A stretch of DNA of 49,732 bases, taken from Flavobacteriales bacterium UBA1112 (GTDB taxonomy: Bacteria; Bacteroidota; Bacteroidia; Flavobacteriales_D; Sanyastnellaceae). The position numbers and the translations under genes are program-made. The DNA is taken from contig DCBH01000072.1 in assembly GCA_002313415.1 (NCBI GenBank), forward strand, positions 1-49,732, written 5' to 3'. Below, in pieces: positions 14,599 to 33,255 of this stretch (position 1 is the stretch's first letter; each line of letters starts with the position of its first letter). Under the pieces are notes generated by a model. The model saw nothing but the letters and a program-made list of their open reading frames with translations, was not told where the DNA came from and searched no databases.

Positions 14599-14860
14599 CA
14601 CCTCTACAAGATATGATTGAATGCGTTGAAGAGAAATGCCTGAGCAAGCATTGACTCCCCCAAATCGGGTAAATTATTTAGAACGATTCAAAATAACCCA
14701 TTTGAGGTATGTTTTACGAACCTTATCCTTCAGAATTTTGAACTGAACAGATTTGGATTCCATGTGTTCCTGAAATTGGTTTTCAACGATTCGCATCGAG
14801 GCTGAACGCAGCTTCATGCATGGCAGCAGGTAATCGGAATATTCAAAAGTATTGTTCATC

Positions 14861-14883
14861 TGGGTGGGCGATTTGCCCACCCA
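14861..14883 (+). promoter_or_regulatory. Perfect 9-bp stem / 5-nt loop hairpin 18 nt upstream of the flavodoxin ATG
   Basis: TGGGTGGGC-GATTT-GCCCACCCA read directly from the sequence. It is not followed by a T-run on either strand, so it is not a classical terminator. It lies in the divergent intergenic region between the EEP gene and fldA. Confidence 0.4.
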
Positions 14884-14900
14884 GTTTCTTCCACAACAAC

Positions 14901-15449
14901 ATGGCATCAATGATTCAACTTTATTACGGTTCTGACACTCAAAACACGCACACAGTGGTGCAGGAAAAAATTGTGCCATTGTTAAAAAAGGAGGGTGTTG
15001 CAGTCCGCGACAAAATCATTCCCGAATTAAGCGATGAGGATTGGCGAGATCACGATTTCTTCATTTTGGGAGTGCCCACATGGTATTACGGGGAATTGCA
15101 AAGTGACTGGGAGGCTTATTTCGAGCATTTCAAAACGCTTGATTTCAAGGGCAAGACGGTCGCACTTTTCGGACTTGGTGATCAGTGGGGTTATGACGAG
15201 TGGTTCATTGATGGAGTGGGCATATTGGCTGAAGCTCTCCTTGAAAATGGTGCTGAAATCATTTGTCCTTGGCCAACGACGGGTTATGATTTTCTCAAGT
15301 CACGCGCTTTAAAAAATGAAGGCGAATTTTATGGCTTGGCTCTTGATGAGGACAATCAGTACGAGCTCACTCAGTCGCGTTGTGAAACATGGGTGAAACA
15401 ATTGGTTGCTGAATTGAAGAAAAAGGATTTGTTGCCCGCGATGAGCTGA
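14901..15449 (+). CDS. fldA: Long-chain flavodoxin
   Basis: ATG at 14901 (alternative at 14910). MIQLYYGSDTQNTHTV is the FMN phosphate loop (S/T-x-T-x-N-T). Further motifs are FFILGVPTWYYGELQSDWE, ALFGLGDQWGYDEWF and FYGLALDEDNQ, the long-chain insertion region. Confidence 0.85.
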   Translation: MASMIQLYYGSDTQNTHTVVQEKIVPLLKKEGVAVRDKIIPELSDEDWRDHDFFILGVPTWYYGELQSDWEAYFEHFKTLDFKGKTVALFGLGDQWGYDEWFIDGVGILAEALLENGAEIICPWPTTGYDFLKSRALKNEGEFYGLALDEDNQYELTQSRCETWVKQLVAELKKKDLLPAMS

Positions 15450-21029: not shown

Positions 21030-22487
21030 TTAGCAAGTTGCGCCGTAGGTGCTGAGAAGTTGAAGCAAGTCTGAAATGGTCACGGCATCGTCCAGGTCGA
21101 TGTCGGCATTGCAATCGGATGTGCATCCAAACTCAGAAAGCAGAAACAACATGTCCCCTACACTGATCACACCATCGTCGTTGACGTCACTCGCGCATGT
21201 GGGTTCGTCTGAGGGAGCGAGGGAAATGAGTTCGTCTCCCTCTTGGTACAAGACGTAATCAAAAAAAACGAAGAACATCTCGTCTGTGGTCCCTTCTCCA
21301 AATGTCACATTCTGCGGCGGGTCGTTGGGGTTGAAGGGATTGGAGCTTGTATTGTCGTAGCTGGCGATGCCGTGTAAGGTGTAGCCCGAGGGGATTTTTG
21401 TCAGTGTTGGGAAGGTGAAGAAACCCTGCCAATTGAAATCCCACGAAGGGATAGAAATGAGCGGAATGGTGTCCTGATTGCTTGGTGAAGTCGCAAAGAC
21501 TTCCCAGGAAGAACCAATCAAATGGCAATGGGGCGCAACGCTTAATAAGCTGACATCTGCAGCCACCTGCATCGATCCTTGAAAAGTCCGCAATTGATTG
21601 GCAGGCAGATAGAAAGGCTCGTCAAGATGTTGAGGCCCCATGATGCCAGTTTCAACTTCACGTTCAATGGGTTCCTCTGAGAAGAAGACGTTGATCTCAG
21701 TTTGGTCTGATTCCTCGATTGGCGATGGACCGTAGTGCATTTGAAGCAAGACGTCAGAGCCTGCGGGTACAATACGCCCTATTCCTGGAGGATATTCAAG
21801 GGTTAAAGCTCCTGGGACCCAAGCACCAAAAAAATTGCTCTCGGCGGAGAAACCGAAGCCCCCAAAGCTTTCGTACCCTGGTTCAGGATCTTGGGCATCT
21901 AAGCTTGCTGCGGTGCCGGTGACGTCCAAACCCAAAATGGCGTGGTGAGATACATTCCGATTTCCGGGTCTAACCTCGAGCGCGCGAATGGACAGGTCGT
22001 TGTTGGGGTCTGCTGGCAGAACAAACACTTGATATTGATCGGTCATATCGCCTCCGTGGGTATACGGCTCTGCCATGGAAAGCACGAGGTCAGGGGAGCC
22101 AATCTGGCTCCCCTCTGGAAACGAGGGCAAGCCAGGGTTGTCTGCGGGATCGCCCTCAGGTTTGCCTTGAGCAACCCAGGCACTTAACGTCGCTTTTTCT
22201 TCGGTTGTGAGCACGCGTTCTCCAACAAAATGCGAATAGCTGTTGTCGGGAGACCAAGGAGGCATGTAGCCCGTTGAAGTCACGTACTCAATAAATTCAC
22301 CATACATGGAAACTTCGTTGAACGTTGTCAGCGGCATTGGACTGATTTCACCGACTCGATGACACTCCGCACAGTGCGTGTAGATGATGGGGGCAACATC
22401 GGCATGAAAAGTGACATTTTGGGCATGACCGAACATGGCTGACCCCGTCCAAAAACTCAAATTCAACAAATAGTGCCATCGGCTCAT
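21030..22487 (-). CDS. Secreted cytochrome-c-domain / PHM-DBH-like type II copper monooxygenase fusion with a two-repeat dockerin-like C-terminus
   Basis: The ATG at 22487 gives signal MSRWHYLLNLSFWTGSAMFGHAQ. The heme c motif CAECH is at 22359-22373, followed by ...GYMPPW. The copper-site pattern is VSHHAILG, LLQMHYG, APHCHLIG and TTDEMFFVF. Residues are numbered from the caller's upstream start at 22739 (subtract 84 for the ATG at 22487). Spacings are HH265/266-H335-H404/H406-M488, close to rat PHM H107/H108-H172-H242/H244-M314. Confidence 0.75.
   Translation of the reverse strand: MSRWHYLLNLSFWTGSAMFGHAQNVTFHADVAPIIYTHCAECHRVGEISPMPLTTFNEVSMYGEFIEYVTSTGYMPPWSPDNSYSHFVGERVLTTEEKATLSAWVAQGKPEGDPADNPGLPSFPEGSQIGSPDLVLSMAEPYTHGGDMTDQYQVFVLPADPNNDLSIRALEVRPGNRNVSHHAILGLDVTGTAASLDAQDPEPGYESFGGFGFSAESNFFGAWVPGALTLEYPPGIGRIVPAGSDVLLQMHYGPSPIEESDQTEINVFFSEEPIEREVETGIMGPQHLDEPFYLPANQLRTFQGSMQVAADVSLLSVAPHCHLIGSSWEVFATSPSNQDTIPLISIPSWDFNWQGFFTFPTLTKIPSGYTLHGIASYDNTSSNPFNPNDPPQNVTFGEGTTDEMFFVFFDYVLYQEGDELISLAPSDEPTCASDVNDDGVISVGDMLFLLSEFGCTSDCNADIDLDDAVTISDLLQLLSTYGATC
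21033..21197 (-). other. Two-repeat dockerin-like module, each repeat Cys-bracketed, at the extreme C-terminus
   Basis: CASDVNDDGVISVGDMLFLLSEFGC-TSD-CNADIDLDDAVTISDLLQLLSTYGATC-stop. Confidence 0.6.
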
Positions 22488-22536
22488 GATAGGTAATGTA
22501 GTGAAAGCGCGACACTTCAGATTGTAACTTCGCCAC

Positions 22537-23373
22537 ATGACGGGTGGATTCTTTGCGTTGTTGGACGACATTGCTGCGATGATGGACGATGTGGCTGCCA
22601 TGACAAAATTGGCGGGCAAGAAGACTGTGGGCATTTTGGGGGATGATCTGGCAGTGAATGCCGAAAAGGCAGTTGGTTTCTCCTCATCTCGTGAGTTGCC
22701 AGTGTTGTGGGCAATTTCTAAAGGATCTTTTCTCAACAAACTTATAATTTTGCCAGCTGCATTTGCCCTTAGCGCTTTCGCGCCTTGGGTGATTGAACCG
22801 ATTCTTCTGCTTGGCGGTGCGTATTTGTCTTATGAGGGGATGGAAAAGGTCATTCACTACGCACGCCCCTCACGCAGCAGGCATGTCGATTCAAATTCAG
22901 GACCAACCGAAAAACAGCGTATCCGCTCCGCGGTACTGGTGGATTTTATATTGTCTGTGGAGATCATAATCCTTGCCTTGGGCCAGGTCATTGAGGCAGA
23001 TTGGTTGGTTCAGGTGGTGTCTGTGTCGCTGATTGCCCTCTTGGCCACGGTAGGGGTGTATGGGGTGGTTGCTTTGCTCGTTCGTATGGATGATGCAGGG
23101 CTGGCATTGATGAAACGCGAGGTGGCCTGGGCCCGGAGCTTCGGCTCTTTTCTTGTGGAGGCCTTGCCATGGACGATTAAAGGGCTCACTGCTGTGGGTA
23201 CGGTTGCGCTTCTCCTGGTCTCGGGAGGGATTTTTCACCATCACATTCCACGGATGCATGAATTTTTGCACAGTTGGCCATCCATACTTGCAGATGGTTT
23301 CTTGGGGATTGTCGGGGGCACTGTAGTTTGGTTCATGTCGATCGCAATCAAGAACTTCAAAGGAAGAGTATGA
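22537..23373 (+). CDS. DUF808 (YedI-like) inner-membrane protein
   Basis: The characteristic N-terminus is MTGGFFALLDDIAAMMDDVAAMTKLAGKKTVGILGDDLAVNAEK, followed by several TM segments. Confidence 0.8.
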   Translation: MTGGFFALLDDIAAMMDDVAAMTKLAGKKTVGILGDDLAVNAEKAVGFSSSRELPVLWAISKGSFLNKLIILPAAFALSAFAPWVIEPILLLGGAYLSYEGMEKVIHYARPSRSRHVDSNSGPTEKQRIRSAVLVDFILSVEIIILALGQVIEADWLVQVVSVSLIALLATVGVYGVVALLVRMDDAGLALMKREVAWARSFGSFLVEALPWTIKGLTAVGTVALLLVSGGIFHHHIPRMHEFLHSWPSILADGFLGIVGGTVVWFMSIAIKNFKGRV

Positions 23374-28255: not shown

Positions 28256-28789
28256 TTATTTCGCCGAGGTCAGTGCATCGATGACATCAATCATTTGAGA
28301 GAATTCTTCTTCATCAAACAAGCGAGTCAACATGGCTATGCGGCCACTGCGATCGACCACAACATTGCGTGTGACTCCCGCTTTTGGTTCAGCAATGCTG
28401 TAAAAAACTTGACCACCGGGGTCTGGGCACATGGGGTAAGTCACTCCCATACGTTCGGAAAATGCAGCGACTTTATCGTGCGGCTCATCTAGATCGACAC
28501 CCAAAAGCAAAAACGGGCGATCTTGAAAAGATTGCCACACTTCGGACTCCAAATGAGGCATCTCTGCTCGACACACGCGACACCAGGATGCGGTGAATTG
28601 CAGCACATAGGTTGTGCCGATTAGAGAACTTTTTGTGTAGGTGTTTCCTGCGAGGTCGTGAAGCACAAAGTCAGGCATTTCATCGCCCATTTGAACCGTA
28701 AAACCTCGCGAATTGACTTGGGCAAATGACGCGTTGAGGCCCGCCAAAAGCCAGCTCGAAGCTAAAAGATAGAGGTGTTTGGCCTTCAT
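28256..28789 (-). CDS. Periplasmic TlpA/ResA-like thiol:disulfide oxidoreductase
   Basis: The signal is MKAKHLYLLASSWLLAGLNASFAQ. The thioredoxin motif is YVLQFTASWCRVCRAEMPHLE (WCxxC), followed by LLGVDLDE and TRNVVVDRSGRI. Confidence 0.8.
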   Translation of the reverse strand: MKAKHLYLLASSWLLAGLNASFAQVNSRGFTVQMGDEMPDFVLHDLAGNTYTKSSLIGTTYVLQFTASWCRVCRAEMPHLESEVWQSFQDRPFLLLGVDLDEPHDKVAAFSERMGVTYPMCPDPGGQVFYSIAEPKAGVTRNVVVDRSGRIAMLTRLFDEEEFSQMIDVIDALTSAK

Positions 28790-28828
28790 GAGAGGTCGGT
28801 CACTTCGACATGAAAATAGAGGGAAACA

Positions 28829-30067
28829 TCATTTCCAAAAGGATTTAAGGGTTCTGCCTAAAGATGAGAAGGGACAACGCTTAGGTACATCTTCTTCAGG
28901 AAACGCGTCTGTTGCCAGCAGGCGGTGAGTCTCCTTGGCTTTGGATGTAAATGTCATTCCGTTCACACGCGGAGGGGGTTGATAGAAGTAGTTGGTGTGA
29001 GTGATTACGCTGTTCGTGAAATGTCGGTGGTATTGTGGAGTCAAGCTGCCGGACATGGGTGGAGTCAACCACGACCAATCTCCCGGGACCTCTCGTCCTT
29101 GTCGCTCCTCAGCTTGGCACCATTGCTCAAATGCGCGGCCAATTTGGTGATGGTCGCCGACTGTGACCCCAGCGGCGTCAAAACTCGCCAGCAGCGCCTG
29201 ATTGAGCCGAACCAAGGCTTCGTCTTGCCATAGGCCACGTCGCAATTTTGTGGCGATGCCACAAGACTCTGCCCAAGGTTTAAGAACATTGTATCTGTCA
29301 GGGTCCGTCAAGTTTCTCGCCGCAATTTCAGTACCGAGGTAATGCCCATTGAATGGGGCAAAAGGATAAATCACGCCTCCAATTTTCAATGCCATGTCTG
29401 CCAAGATCGGCACGGCATACCACCTCAATCCAAGATTCTTTGTCGCTGGAAAATCCGGATGTGCAATGGGGATGTCGTGGGGGGACAAATTGCCGTCGTG
29501 AAACGGATCTACGGGCGTGTGGGCCCGTCCTGATTCCACTAGGACCCAGGGCAGTGGGGTCCAAGGAGTTTCTTTGGTATCCCATCCCTGATTGATACAG
29601 TACTTTGTCAAATCGATGCTGTCCGGATCACCCAAGACCTTTCCATGGGCTTGCTCAAATCCAGCGTAGCGAACCAATTGGTGGTTGGCCATACGCCATG
29701 GCACGTCCTCGCTTGACTGCGCCTGAGGAAAGATTGTGATGACGTTGCTGATTTTTCCGCCGTTGAATGCAGCATTGACGTGGCACTTGAGGTGTGAGAC
29801 GGCCTCATCGAGGCTGTCGCATTTGCGTGCGTCGTGAACTTGAAGGGTTCGCCAAAAATGTCGTCCGATGCACCGATTTGAATTGCGCCATGCAAGTCTA
29901 GACCCAAACTCTAACTCCTTATAGTTGTGTTTATAAGTTCCAGTTGACTCAATTTCAGATTGAATTTGTTTCCATCGCAGAGTGACATCGGGAATGTCCG
30001 CGCCTGCGACTGGGTCAGCAGCCATTGAATCCAAAAAAGCACGAGCTTCTTTTTTCAGTTGTTCCAT
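28829..30067 (-). CDS. nos: Bacterial nitric oxide synthase, oxygenase domain only
   Basis: The ATG at 30067 gives MEQLKKEARAFLD, aligning with the B. subtilis NOS N-terminus. Residues are numbered from the caller's upstream start at 30217 (subtract 50 for the ATG at 30067). AWRNSNRCIGRHFW carries the heme thiolate Cys116 (29870-29872). Further motifs are NGGKISNVITIFPQ, HQLVRYAGF, LRWYAVPILADM, PFNGHYLGTEIAARN, VTVGDHH and DWSWLTPPMSGSLTP. No reductase domain and no mammalian-type N-terminal Zn/pterin hook are present. Confidence 0.9.
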   Translation of the reverse strand: MEQLKKEARAFLDSMAADPVAGADIPDVTLRWKQIQSEIESTGTYKHNYKELEFGSRLAWRNSNRCIGRHFWRTLQVHDARKCDSLDEAVSHLKCHVNAAFNGGKISNVITIFPQAQSSEDVPWRMANHQLVRYAGFEQAHGKVLGDPDSIDLTKYCINQGWDTKETPWTPLPWVLVESGRAHTPVDPFHDGNLSPHDIPIAHPDFPATKNLGLRWYAVPILADMALKIGGVIYPFAPFNGHYLGTEIAARNLTDPDRYNVLKPWAESCGIATKLRRGLWQDEALVRLNQALLASFDAAGVTVGDHHQIGRAFEQWCQAEERQGREVPGDWSWLTPPMSGSLTPQYHRHFTNSVITHTNYFYQPPPRVNGMTFTSKAKETHRLLATDAFPEEDVPKRCPFSSLGRTLKSFWK

Positions 30068-30198
30068 TCCTTTCACACCAGCAAATGGCGAGATGGGATC
30101 GAGGTGGAATGGGGATGAATTGGCGCCAGACAAGTTCACGGAGCAAAGGTACGCCTGTAATGCAGCAAGAGGAGGGGCATTCACGACCTTTGGCAACC

Positions 30199-30930
30199 AT
30201 GAGTGAGTCATTATCACAAGGAACCCGAATCAACAAATACCTCAGTGAGGTAGGTCATTGCTCGCGCAGGGCTGCAGATGCACTGATTGAAGAAGGCAGA
30301 ATTACCATCAATGGGGTGGTTCCTAAAATGGGAACCCGTGTGCAACTCGGAGACGTGGTCGCGGTGGATGGAGTCGAAGTAGCAACAAGCGATCAAGAGC
30401 GAATCATCATCGCATATCACAAGCCTGTGGGTATCGTGTGCACAACGGACCGGCGACGTGAAAAGGACAACATCATTGATGCGATTGATTTTCCAACTCG
30501 GATTTATCCTATTGGCAGATTAGATAAAATGAGTGAAGGGCTGATTTTTTTGACCAACGATGGAGACATCGTCAACGACATTCTTCGGGCGCGTTTTGGG
30601 CACGAAAAGGAGTATCACGTGACGGTCAATGCACCTGTTACCGGAGAGTTCCTCAAGAAGATGTCAGAAGGAGTTCCCATTTTAGATACCGTTACGTTGC
30701 CTTGTGAAGTGAATGCCACTGGCCCGCAATCATTCAAAATCATCCTGAAGCAGGGACTAAACAGACAAATTCGGCGGATGTGTGAGGAGTTGGGTTACCG
30801 AGTCCGACGACTGAAGCGCGTACGCATCATGAACGTCGAACTCGGAGATTTACCCGTAGGTACGTATCGCCACTTGGATGACCCTGAGCTTCGCAAGCTC
30901 AAAGCACTTACACGAGAGGCAAAAAATTAA
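30199..30930 (+). CDS. rluF: 23S rRNA pseudouridine synthase F (RsuA/RluF family)
   Basis: The ATG at 30199 opens an S4 domain (RINKYLSEVGHCSRRAADALIEEGRITING). The catalytic motif is IYPIGRLDKMSEGLIFLTNDGD. HEKEYHVTV, GVPILDTVT and GLNRQIRRMCEELGY are near-collinear with E. coli RluF. Confidence 0.9.
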   Translation: MSESLSQGTRINKYLSEVGHCSRRAADALIEEGRITINGVVPKMGTRVQLGDVVAVDGVEVATSDQERIIIAYHKPVGIVCTTDRRREKDNIIDAIDFPTRIYPIGRLDKMSEGLIFLTNDGDIVNDILRARFGHEKEYHVTVNAPVTGEFLKKMSEGVPILDTVTLPCEVNATGPQSFKIILKQGLNRQIRRMCEELGYRVRRLKRVRIMNVELGDLPVGTYRHLDDPELRKLKALTREAKN

Positions 30931-30958: not shown

Positions 30959-32236
30959 TTACGCCTGCGCTTTGTTTGGAAATACGCGATTCGCAATCAG
31001 TGCGACCACTAGGCCAATGCCAAGGCCTTTGAGCAAATCGATGAATACGATGGCCAGAATGGTCACTAAAAAGGGAACAAACACGGTCATTCCACTGTCA
31101 AACATTTTCTTGAAAGTGGCTGGCTTGGCCAATTTGTAACCGACGACAAAAAGCACTGCGGCAAGACTGCCTAGTGGAATGTAAGTGAGCAGCGTCGGAG
31201 CAAAAAGGAAGAACACCAAGAGCCAGACACCATGAAGAATGGCACTCATCTTGGTTGCATTGCCTGTTTGAATGTTCGCCGAAGAACGAACAATGACCTG
31301 AGTGATGGGCAGTCCACCAATCAAACCACTCATTGTGTTGCCAACGCCTTGAGCCAAAAGTTCTCGGTTGGTTGGCGTAACTCTTTTCTGTGGATCCAAT
31401 TTGTCAGTGGCTTCCACGCACAGGAGTGTTTCTAAACTGGCAACAACGGCGATGGTGGCCGCCAAAATCCAGATTGCACTGTCCCCAATTGCAGTGAAGT
31501 CCGGGAAAGTGAAGAGCGCGCCCCACGCGGTAGGATCAATGCCGTTCGCGGCGTGACCTGTCGGAACATCCACCAATTGCTTTGCCGTCAAGGCACCGCC
31601 GCTGCTCTTCGTCAACAAATGAATTGCTACGCCTGCCATGACCGCCACGAGAGAACCAGACAACACCTTGGTAAAGCTTTGGGCTTTCATCAATGAAGTT
31701 TCCCACAACACGAGGATGCCAAGGCATACTGCCGTAACAAGCATTGCCGTGGGTGCGGTGTAAGCCAAATTGTCCCCTAACAGGAGCAAGACATCAAAGA
31801 CTTTGTCTGCTTTGGCTGTTCCTTCTGCGCCTGCATATCCAAGACCGTGAGGAATTTGCTTGATGAAAATGATGATGCCGATGGCTGCCAGCATCCCTTG
31901 GATGACACTGGCGGGGAAATACTTGCCAATGATTCCGGCGCGGGCAATGCCGAGTACAAGTTGGGCGAGACCACCGATGACCACGGCCAAGAGAAAGGCT
32001 TCAAAGCCGACCTCTTGAATGCCATCATACACGATGACTGCGAGGCCAGCCGCAGGACCAGATACACCGACGTGGCTGCCTGAGATGGGAGCGACAATGA
32101 TGCCGCCAATGATGCCCGCAATCACGCCGGCAATGGGTGCTGCTCCTGAGGCGAGGGCGATGCCCAAGCAAAGTGGAAGTGCAACAAGAAAAACAACAAT
32201 GGAAGAGGGCAAATCACGCCCGAGATGCTGAAACAT
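30959..32236 (-). CDS. SulP-family anion (sulfate/bicarbonate) transporter, membrane domain only (no STAS)
   Basis: The N-terminus is DLPSSIVVFLVALPLCLGIALASGAAPIAGVIAGIIGGIIV. Further motifs are NRELLAQGVGNTMSGLIGGLPIT and VIVRSSANIQTGNATKMS. The protein ends at 425 aa, right after the last TM helix. The convergent rluF leaves only 28 bp, so there is no room for a STAS domain. Confidence 0.85.
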   Translation of the reverse strand: MFQHLGRDLPSSIVVFLVALPLCLGIALASGAAPIAGVIAGIIGGIIVAPISGSHVGVSGPAAGLAVIVYDGIQEVGFEAFLLAVVIGGLAQLVLGIARAGIIGKYFPASVIQGMLAAIGIIIFIKQIPHGLGYAGAEGTAKADKVFDVLLLLGDNLAYTAPTAMLVTAVCLGILVLWETSLMKAQSFTKVLSGSLVAVMAGVAIHLLTKSSGGALTAKQLVDVPTGHAANGIDPTAWGALFTFPDFTAIGDSAIWILAATIAVVASLETLLCVEATDKLDPQKRVTPTNRELLAQGVGNTMSGLIGGLPITQVIVRSSANIQTGNATKMSAILHGVWLLVFFLFAPTLLTYIPLGSLAAVLFVVGYKLAKPATFKKMFDSGMTVFVPFLVTILAIVFIDLLKGLGIGLVVALIANRVFPNKAQA

Positions 32237-32655: not shown

Positions 32656-33117
32656 TCAGGGGTTGTAAGGGAAAGAGGAATGGTGAAGGTCAATCTTCAA
32701 TGCGCCATTGACGAGTTTGTACCCAAAAGTGTATTCGACTTTGGCTTCATTGCCATCGAGGTCGGTGAAAAAGTAATTTCCCATTGCGATTGCTCGTTCT
32801 CCTTCGAGGATGAATCCTGTATTTTCAAATCGGACTTTGGTCCATGGATTGATGGCAAATCCGCCATCTTCTTGACAAGCACGGTCGTCTCCTGCAATAA
32901 AGTAAGAACGGGCCTCAGCTTTGGTTGCACGAAATTGCTCATTCGCACATTTGGTAGGTTTGAAGAGGACTGTTCCCAATTCGAACGCATACATCTTGTC
33001 TAAAAAATTACTGGCAAAAGTTTCGCATTCACCTCTTTGGTCGCGCAAAGCACCAATGGCTACAACCCCCGAGCCCCATTCGTCTTGGGCGGCAATAACT
33101 TGAGCTTGTTGAATCAT
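32656..33117 (-). CDS. SnoaL/CaMKII-AD-fold protein, candidate iota-class carbonic anhydrase
   Basis: 153 aa from the ATG at 33117. It ends ...KVEYTFGYKLVNGALKIDLHHSSFPYNP. The HHSS codons were read directly at 32674-32685. It also has LFKPTKCANEQFRATKAEARSYF. It sits upstream of, and on the same strand as, a SulP transporter. SnoaL-like proteins of other function can share a similar tail. Confidence 0.5.
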   Translation of the reverse strand: MIQQAQVIAAQDEWGSGVVAIGALRDQRGECETFASNFLDKMYAFELGTVLFKPTKCANEQFRATKAEARSYFIAGDDRACQEDGGFAINPWTKVRFENTGFILEGERAIAMGNYFFTDLDGNEAKVEYTFGYKLVNGALKIDLHHSSFPYNP

Positions 33118-33255
33118 GATAAAGATTTTTTTGAACTGCGTCTTCGATAATAAAAATTGTCTGAGGCGAAAATAACAGGTCCAAGGGCTTTTTAATGTCA
33201 AAGGTTGTCAACAGAGAAAAGTCCGTGGTGAGAAAGACGACCTTAATTTTGAGAG

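Follow-up and report, generated by a model that had tools for sequence, protein, structure and literature searches.

The window analysed here, a 49,732-nucleotide contig of Flavobacteriales bacterium UBA1112 (DCBH01000072.1, assembly GCA_002313415.1), carries on its minus strand, between positions 28829 and 30139, a gene of 436 codons plus stop that encodes a genuine stand-alone nitric oxide synthase (NOS) oxygenase of the bacterial type, belonging to an uncultured, marine lineage of Flavobacteriales. The tryptophan that is proposed to pass electrons to the haem in other NOS is replaced by histidine throughout this lineage, and the oxygenase domain is flanked by two conserved extensions. We regard it as probable that the protein is a stand-alone oxygenase served by an unlinked electron donor, and that the TlpA-like thiol-disulfide oxidoreductase gene immediately downstream is a chance neighbour.

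The gene is identified by its Pfam profile, its matches in the Protein Data Bank (PDB) and its predicted fold, and its start was set by comparing 23 loci (see below); unless the ATG at 30067 is stated, residue numbers refer to the 436-residue product that begins at the GTG at 30139. PF02898 covers residues 2-366 of the product counted from ATG 30067 (E 6.7e-123, profile positions 3-360 of 362). The top PDB sequence matches of the protein come from the NOS of Geobacillus (E 4.9e-95) and of B. subtilis (about 1e-91), and the AlphaFold model, with a mean predicted local distance difference test score (pLDDT) of 89.8, superposes on B. subtilis NOS in Foldseek with a template modelling (TM) score of 0.93 and a root-mean-square deviation of 1.8-2.1 Å. 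PF02898 was the only domain found in the Pfam scan of the protein, which gave no reductase domain, and no NCBIfam model matched it. The initial annotation had likewise described a NOS oxygenase core without reductase, and all the motifs that it listed are present: AWRNSNRCIGR, HQLVRYAGF, RWYAVPILADM, GTEIAARN and GDWSWLTPPMSGSLTP. Databases already label the proteins of this lineage as NOS oxygenases.

The core haem/pterin domain comprises residues 25-390 (28970-30067, minus strand) as delimited by Pfam, PDB and AlphaFold, and its haem-, arginine- and pterin-binding residues are all invariant in the relatives. In the thiolate loop LAWRNSNRCIGRH the haem ligand Cys90 (Cys66 from ATG 30067; codon at 29870-29872, minus strand), which lies in RCIGRH, and the tryptophan that hydrogen-bonds to the thiolate occupy invariant columns among 96 relatives. 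The same holds for the substrate Tyr and Glu of HYLGTEIAARN together with its Thr and the Arg that contacts pterin and the haem propionate, and for both tryptophans of the pterin-stacking pair GDWxW, here GDWSWL. The invariant positions thus include Trp84, Cys90, Arg93, Tyr267, Glu271, Arg275, Trp355 and Trp357. The N-terminal extension has no cysteine, i.e. there is no Zn-Cys4 hook, and the conserved Arg is followed by Asn rather than Asp (AARN).

A protein search recovered a tight clade of full-length homologues (P0001-P0020) that are 62-99% identical to the window protein, while the next relatives reach at most 54%. When species-representative genomes were scanned, the clade turned up in 22 metagenome-assembled genomes (MAGs) of marine (Tara), brackish and freshwater origin, with no cultured member among the genomes scanned. 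Twenty of the 22 are labelled Flavobacteriales, Crocinitomicaceae, Bacteroidota or Bacteroidetes; the other two are labelled 'uncultured Comamonadaceae' and yet show Flavobacteriales synteny. These two loci, L009 (CAZGQI010000009.1) and L012 (CAZKGY010000023.1), have the full Flavobacteriales gene order around NOS at 74-79% protein identity, and their bin labels look wrong. A neighbour-joining tree built from the 120 nearest relatives, which is distance-based and without support values, shows the clade as monophyletic and nested in a larger Bacteroidota NOS group. The tree had been proposed as a check for horizontal transfer. We found no sign of a recent transfer and rejected it on three grounds, namely the conserved synteny of the clade, its nesting among Bacteroidota NOS and an ordinary GC content (0.513, within the window range of 0.495 +/- 0.016). 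The description of the protein as a Bacteroidota NOS therefore holds, as all 22 related genomes are Flavobacteriales or Bacteroidota MAGs by label or synteny, and the window itself encodes a protein with a type IX secretion system (T9SS) tail. NOS is widespread in uncultured Bacteroidota.

One difference from the solved bacterial enzymes lies at the edge of the haem. It had been noted earlier that the usual PFNGWYMGTEI reads PFNGHYLGTEI in this protein, and alignment to bacterial NOS structures confirms that the histidine is homologous to the conserved tryptophan: the two strings match column for column between the window protein and Geobacillus and Bacillus NOS (PFNGHYLGTEIAARN over PFNGWYMGTEIGARN in the structure-sequence alignment). 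The FNG[W]Y position is occupied by His266 (His242 from ATG 30067, His292 in the initial annotation), encoded by CAT at 29344-29342 on the minus strand. The substrate residue Glu271 follows His266 by five residues. We take the spacing of W366 and E371 in iNOS, and of W356 and E361 in human eNOS, to be five residues too, and because of this identical spacing His266 appears to be the equivalent of mouse iNOS W366 and human eNOS W356. In the output state of mouse iNOS, as seen by cryo-electron microscopy, W366 lies 3.9 Å from the flavin mononucleotide (FMN) and 3.6 Å from the haem, and FMN-to-haem transfer through this residue has been proposed (2026 preprint). The conserved Trp (356 in human eNOS, 715 in syNOS) has also been described as the docking site of the flavodoxin-like domain at the back of the haem pocket (2026 syNOS structure paper). 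Given this role of Trp at the haem edge, the substitution would bear on how electrons enter and partners dock more than on the arginine pocket. The label of a pocket motif, under which the change was first reported, is accordingly misplaced: the tryptophan is a proposed haem-edge docking and electron-relay residue and not simply a part of the pocket.

The histidine is fixed in the clade, all of whose examined members (about 40 sequences; 22 MAGs that represent species) read FNGHYLGTEIAARN. When NOS is sampled more widely, as 145 cluster representatives at 50% identity, the relay position holds Trp in 111, Phe in 24, Tyr in four, Val in three and His, Ile or Cys in one each; Phe is thus present in 17% of the clusters and a residue other than Trp in about 23%. 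The relay residue is Phe, Tyr or His through a large radiation that is sister to the clade in the neighbour-joining tree, further sister groups keep Trp, and the sister Bacteroidota clades taken together have Phe, Tyr, His or Trp. At least three more independent gains of His are seen (P0052/60/68; P0057; L030, labelled as a Chryseobacterium gleum MAG). On this distribution His at the relay position is rare overall and recurrent in Bacteroidota. The initial view of the change as an unusual variant needs revision: the residue is fixed in the clade, it recurs, and non-Trp residues are common in uncharacterised NOS, if not in the characterised ones. Nor does the missing haem-edge Trp exclude the protein from PF02898, where this Trp is common and not universal. 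One further His-bearing record, P0080 (347 aa, on a 128-kb contig), is annotated as AIM24 plus NOS and leaves the NOS frame right after FNGHYL, apparently a frameshifted or chimeric call that spans the junction of NOS and AIM24.

The electron source of stand-alone bacterial NOS is poorly defined, and recent structures centre FMN-to-haem transfer on the FNGWY Trp. A clade of abundant marine and freshwater Flavobacteriales with His at this site, with sister groups that have Phe or Tyr, therefore offers a set of natural mutants for the question of whether the Trp is needed. We considered that the relay residue might track the type of donor, Trp going with FMN or flavodoxin and Phe with 2Fe-2S, and rejected the idea, since four long proteins of the Phe type and four of the Trp type all have BFD-like 2Fe-2S, flavin adenine dinucleotide (FAD) and nicotinamide adenine dinucleotide (NAD) modules. 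The occurrence of Phe in these multidomain, reductase-fused NOS means that a non-Trp residue is compatible with a self-sufficient architecture. Among the long NOS with N-terminal BFD-2Fe-2S/FAD/NAD modules, EF-hands often accompany Phe (P0127, P0140, P0155, P0181), and two cyclic nucleotide monophosphate (cNMP)-binding domains accompany Trp (P0128-P0131).

The second peculiarity of the clade is an N-terminal extension that was overlooked initially because both start codons then in use, 30217 and 30067, were wrong; neither of them is conserved. We aligned the region 5' of NOS from 17-23 related loci in order to place the start. Opposite ATG 30067 the related loci frequently have CTT, CTG, CTC or AAG, which rules this codon out as a common start. 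At a position 72 nt upstream of it GTG or ATG and then AAY YTN are present in all loci, and in many loci an in-frame stop lies four codons before this conserved (G/A)TG AAY YTN. All 23 loci point to GTG 30139-30137 as the true conserved start, which gives the product of 436 aa. The additional 24 residues, (M)NLSGANSSPFHLDPISPFAGVKG (30068-30139, minus strand), are in frame in 23 of 23 clade loci and show the conserved pattern N-L-[SA]..[ST]-S-P-F-[HQ]-L. The extension was not found in other NOS clades, i.e. it belongs to this clade only, and AlphaFold gives it a pLDDT of 39-65. Between the window and L008, 12 of the 13 nucleotide differences in the 24 codons are synonymous, a pattern indicative of purifying selection on the extension.

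At the other end, the initial annotation counted about 45 extra residues after the YQPPP that closes the canonical domain; there are 46, and they are conserved in the clade (RVNGMTFTSKAKETHRLLATDAFPEEDVPKRCPFSSLGRTLKSFWK, 28832-28969, minus strand). Across 39 unique clade sequences six tail positions never vary (Gly, Arg, Ala, Cys, Pro and the penultimate Trp), and conservation reaches 95% or more at V, S, K, T, H, L and D positions, in the pattern V-x-G-x4-S-x2-K-x-T-H-R-L-L-x2-D-A-[FY]-x8-C-P-[FWY]-x(9-10)-W-x. The mean majority fraction is 0.67 in the tail as against 0.81 in the core. In the AlphaFold model of the 436-aa product the first 13 or so residues of the tail are packed on the core with a pLDDT of about 89-93, the middle falls below 50 and a terminal amphipathic helix reaches about 62. 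Models of the 412-aa and the 436-aa product both have confident cores, with a pLDDT below 65 around the invariant Cys-Pro-aromatic (CP-aromatic) motif, which is Cys422-Pro423-Phe424 in the window protein (28868-28876, minus strand). The crystallised Bacillus and Geobacillus NOS stop within a few residues of FYQ, and there is no solved structure of such a tail.

The CP-aromatic motif is found far outside the clade. Of the 120 nearest relatives, 106 carry CP[FYW] behind the domain, for the most part in the form of a G-C-P-F/Y-H-L terminus, and among 90 representatives of diverse clusters 15 have it no more than 40 aa past the domain end. Its density after the domain is 5.1e-3 per residue, compared with 2.5e-4 elsewhere in the same proteins, an enrichment of about 20-fold. 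The CP-tailed set includes multidomain NOS that bear a reductase in their N-terminal part (P0127, P0140 and P0181, and probably others). A GCPF(H/F) tail is also present in P0112 (Jeotgalibacillus aurantiacus), P0111, P0113, P0114 and P0120, which lie on a branch of Bacillota type and have CIGRL in the thiolate loop. The CP tail thus reaches beyond Bacteroidota, into at least one named and probably cultured species.

These observations raise the question of whether the tails and the histidine form a module of their own, for regulation or electron delivery, in which the CP-aromatic tail, together with His381 or the SPFHL segment, would bind haem or a metal transiently or would dock a redox partner at the haem edge. 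The Cys-Pro pair is invariant and followed by an aromatic residue, the segment is predicted to be flexible, and the motif is enriched after the domain in diverse NOS including the multidomain ones. The G-C-P-F/Y-H-L ends of the sister clades come close to the Gly-Cys-Pro-Trp-His-Asp motif of Bradyrhizobium Irr, also a Cys-Pro-aromatic in a flexible terminal segment, although this is a likeness of short motifs and, unlike Irr and the sister clades, the window clade has Ser or Thr in place of the His after the aromatic residue. The resemblance to a haem-regulatory CP motif may therefore serve as a lead only. The tail also occurs together with CIGRH in 100 of 102 sequences among the 120 nearest relatives, although common descent confounds this co-occurrence. 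A further point in favour is that mammalian NOS have, immediately behind the oxygenase domain, the linker by which the FMN domain reaches the haem-edge Trp. However, AlphaFold confidence is low exactly in the motif region. Moreover, many CP-tailed NOS keep the Trp, and the occurrence of both Trp and Phe with the same 2Fe-2S/FAD/NAD layout speaks against any tracking of the donor. We consider such a module unlikely. The CP tail is a candidate regulatory or partner-binding element that is missing from the crystallised bacterial NOS. A broader speculation is slightly less likely again: the CP-aromatic(-His) tail might be a switch or docking element across much of prokaryotic NOS, one that binds haem or a metal or keeps a particular electron donor at the haem edge, and that co-evolved in this clade with the loss of Trp and the SPFHL extension, giving a control of NOS unlike that of Bacillus or mammals.

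One could also argue that the histidine has disabled electron entry and that the protein is a decaying or non-catalytic relic, given that the replaced residue is the proposed FMN-to-haem relay. This we find hardly credible. The reading frame is intact, and it is strongly conserved, both tails included, in 22 species-level genomes; the changes in the N-terminal extension are mostly synonymous; and the roughly 23% of NOS clusters without Trp include multidomain proteins with an N-terminal 2Fe-2S/FAD/NAD reductase. The conservation pattern instead suggests that tails and core are under purifying selection across the clade.

Two further substitutions characterise the wider Bacteroidota group to which this stand-alone oxygenase belongs. 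At the gate position, where animals have Val and Bacillus has Ile, the window protein has Leu246 (Leu222 from ATG 30067; codon at 29402-29404, minus strand), as was seen initially from PILADM against PIISDM; the alignment with solved bacterial NOS places VPILADM over VPIISDM. Leu is found at the gate in 80 of the 120 nearest relatives and in eight of 146 clusters at 50% identity, so it is typical of the Bacteroidota NOS radiation and a minority state overall. The Val/Ile exchange at the gate is known from published work to affect the rate of NO release. By analogy, Leu246 would be expected to give a slow, Ile-like release. The other substitution is the His directly after the thiolate-loop Arg (CIGRH), present in 102 of the 120 nearest relatives, where the Bacillota enzymes have Leu.

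The TlpA-like gene (28256-28789, minus strand; AhpC-TSA/Redoxin, E 6e-18) begins 39 nt past the NOS stop on the same strand, with a signal-peptide-like N-terminus and a WCRVC motif, as the initial annotation had stated. Like the TlpA/ResA family it has a signal peptide, a thioredoxin fold and a WCxxC motif within an AhpC-TSA/Redoxin domain. Its scores, however, lie far under the NCBIfam equivalog cut-offs (65.2 bits for ResA, cut-off 170; 37.6 for TlpA, cut-off 230), and it can be called no more than TlpA-like, a protein of the general AhpC-TSA/Redoxin fold with CxxC. It had been suggested that the two genes form a functional operon, in which a periplasmic oxidoreductase would tie NO production to nitrosative or thiol stress in the envelope. 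The common strand and the short spacer (28790-28828), in which no terminator-like site was found, would suit an operon. The junction is also real: it is repeated in three other, independent metagenome contigs, and an assembly artefact was rejected for this reason. In addition, most clade genomes keep a TlpA orthologue no more than about 5 kb from NOS.

The comparison of locus order by tblastn in 30 loci nevertheless leads to a different conclusion. The ancestral order is GH2 - small carbonic anhydrase - SulP - RluF(-) - NOS(+) - AIM24-like(+) - PurU(-) - p111(+) - T9SS-tail protein(-) - [p421] - TlpA(+) - [PNGase F] - prolyl oligopeptidase(-), whereas in the window NOS is directly followed by TlpA, then by PNGase F and the oligopeptidase. 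More than 20 relatives have TlpA at a distance of 3.5-5.5 kb downstream of NOS, with the AIM24-like gene and the opposite-strand genes for PurU and the T9SS-tail protein between them, and direct adjacency is confined to the window lineage. A block of about 4 kb, AIM24-PurU-p111-Por530 (a T9SS protein), is missing from the window, and the 39-nt spacer is the junction of this loss. The block is kept by the relatives nearest to the window (77-79% identity) and also by the deepest-branching members of the clade (67-69%), which is why we assign its loss to the window lineage. Relocated copies of AIM24, PurU, p111 or p421 were sought across the 49.7 kb and none was found. The trace of the old arrangement is still visible: the stop of NOS and the start of AIM24 overlap in the relatives (AAATGA), and the window retains AAATGA and then diverges. 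Four wider relatives have NOS as a solitary gene in unrelated surroundings, and neither TlpA nor AIM24 nor a reductase adjoins it. TlpA-like paralogues are generic envelope redox proteins. The gene is thus a neighbour by accident of a deletion and no conserved functional partner. We regard the operon as a functional unit as very improbable and, on synteny, largely refuted; in the window genome itself TlpA is probably still co-transcribed with NOS. The pairing of the two genes should not be taken as a functional clue.

A better claim to conserved linkage is held by the AIM24/PF01987 (TIGR00266) gene, which overlaps the NOS stop or follows it within a few nucleotides in 22 of those 26 clade loci whose sequence continues beyond NOS (e.g. 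L001:9239-10033, with the same slot in L002, L005-L011, L013-L018 and L020-L026). Its product is very close to P. aeruginosa PA3696 (PDB 1yox, E 1.6e-106), a hypothetical protein with a solved structure. This could mean that the NOS-fold protein works with the AIM24/PA3696-like protein in a dedicated pathway, such as nitration or other arginine-derived chemistry, and bacterial NOS is indeed known in biosynthetic nitration (thaxtomin). But AIM24 was lost at least three times (window, L004, L027/L029) with NOS intact each time, from which it follows that AIM24 is not obligatory. There are also no P450, non-ribosomal peptide synthetase or other biosynthetic genes nearby, and the arginine- and pterin-binding residues are all retained. 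A dedicated pathway is therefore a very improbable explanation.

According to the explanation that we prefer, the protein would be a cytoplasmic NOS of 436 aa that, at a Cys-ligated haem and with the help of pterin, turns L-arginine into citrulline and NO by oxidation. It would draw its electrons in trans from a reductase that is not linked to the gene, most likely by way of a flavodoxin or another small carrier whose gene lies elsewhere; no fused or adjacent reductase was found in the clade or in the wider relatives examined. The clade is specific to Flavobacteriales, inside a large uncharacterised Bacteroidota NOS radiation. CIGRH, the Leu gate, the lost haem-edge Trp and the CP-aromatic tail mark the clade or the radiation around it, and the 24-aa SPF(H/Q)L extension marks the clade only. 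The deletion of about 4 kb brought the TlpA-like gene beside NOS. Domain identity, residue homology, the conservation of His and of both tails in the clade, the synteny and the deletion are observed, and the enzymatic activity, the donor, the effects of His and Leu and any part played by the tails are deduced. Several points weigh against this explanation. NO synthesis is deduced from homology only, and the literature that we searched holds no characterised member of the Bacteroidota radiation. With the electron-entry Trp missing, efficient reduction by flavodoxin is not guaranteed. The two conserved tails suggest additional biology that the explanation leaves out, the translational coupling of NOS to the AIM24/PA3696-like gene in most relatives could reflect a dedicated pathway, and NOS is likely to be co-transcribed with TlpA in the window genome. 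The literature search returned nothing specific on Bacteroidota NOS, the CP tail or the Trp-to-His variant, which is weak evidence since the coverage of subscription journals was thin.

It is instructive to compare the general features of this NOS with those of the known systems. The closest are the Bacillota enzymes bsNOS and gsNOS, which are likewise single-domain proteins with neither Zn hook nor reductase (42-44% identity, TM score 0.93) and have the same thiolate loop, substrate Glu and Tyr, pterin Trp pair and Asn after the Arg. They differ in having Trp in FNGWY, an Ile gate and CIGRL, and in ending 2-9 residues past FYQ, whereas the window protein has His, Leu, CIGRH and the extensions of 24 and 46 aa. 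The oxygenase domains of mammalian NOS share the fold (TM score about 0.82, 37-38% identity) and the catalytic residues. However, mammalian NOS and syNOS have fused diflavin reductases, a Zn/hook N-terminus and calmodulin- or C2-based control, and they keep the Trp (W366/W356/W715) at the position of His266 in the window protein; the mammalian gate is Val. A third group is formed by the self-sufficient NOS of the Sorangium/Silicibacter type, multidomain proteins of about 900-1200 aa with a 2Fe-2S/FAD/NAD reductase at the N-terminal and the oxygenase at the C-terminal end and with Trp or Phe at the relay position, as opposed to the window NOS, which is without reductase. Database entries with this layout have Phe at the relay, and several have CPF(H) after the domain, like the wider family of the window protein.

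On its upstream side NOS is separated from a divergent gene for an RluF-like pseudouridine synthase (30199-30930, plus strand; 243 aa; Pfam S4 and PseudoU_synth_2), a conserved neighbour that all relatives have in synteny and at 80-90% identity. From RluF to ATG 30067 there are 131 bp, made up of the 72 nt that code for the N-terminus of NOS and a true intergenic region of 59 bp (30140-30198), in which two blocks are invariant across 17 loci even though the NOS proteins of these loci are only 67-79% identical to that of the window. The first block is CAAAGGTCGTGAA at 30192-30180 on the minus strand; its complement GACCTTTG lies at 30185-30192 on the plus strand, 6 nt 5' of the RluF ATG. The second, TACCTTTG at 30151-30144 on the minus strand, lies 4 nt 5' of the NOS GTG. 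The Bacteroidetes-type -7 box has the consensus TAnnTTTG, and we infer that the two blocks may be promoter boxes of this kind, which they resemble. If so, the transcripts of NOS and RluF would be leaderless or nearly so. A known RNA element in this conserved region was considered and rejected, as Rfam gave no match anywhere in the window. The mechanically called open reading frames 28829-30217 (minus) and 30025-30930 (plus) extend well 5' of the starts at 30139 and 30199 and so overlap by about 190 nt. The same error of start calling is seen in the gene calls of the relatives, where NOS is given as 445-455 aa and RluF is shortened.

Three other features of the window are worth mentioning. The flavodoxin that was reported initially at 14901-15449 is encoded by a reading frame at 14820-15449 on the plus strand (PF00258, E 6e-16), about 13 kb from NOS and, as had been said, not linked to it; it is a candidate electron donor, with nothing that links it to NOS. 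A reading frame of 569 aa at 21030-22739 (minus) shares 61% identity with the T9SS-tail protein found in the relatives between NOS and TlpA. It stands about 6 kb away in the opposite relative orientation, and it may be a paralogue or a relocated copy that remained after the rearrangement by which the block was lost. Finally, beside SulP (30959-32236, minus) the window has at 32656-33201 (minus) a gene for a small protein like the metal-independent carbonic anhydrases (below the cut-off of NCBIfam NF047901; in L005 a match to Pfam MICAH), and the same slot in L001 and L004 is taken by a beta-carbonic anhydrase (Pro_CA), where SulP is also longer. The anhydrase of a probable bicarbonate-transport pair thus seems to have been exchanged for a non-orthologous one.

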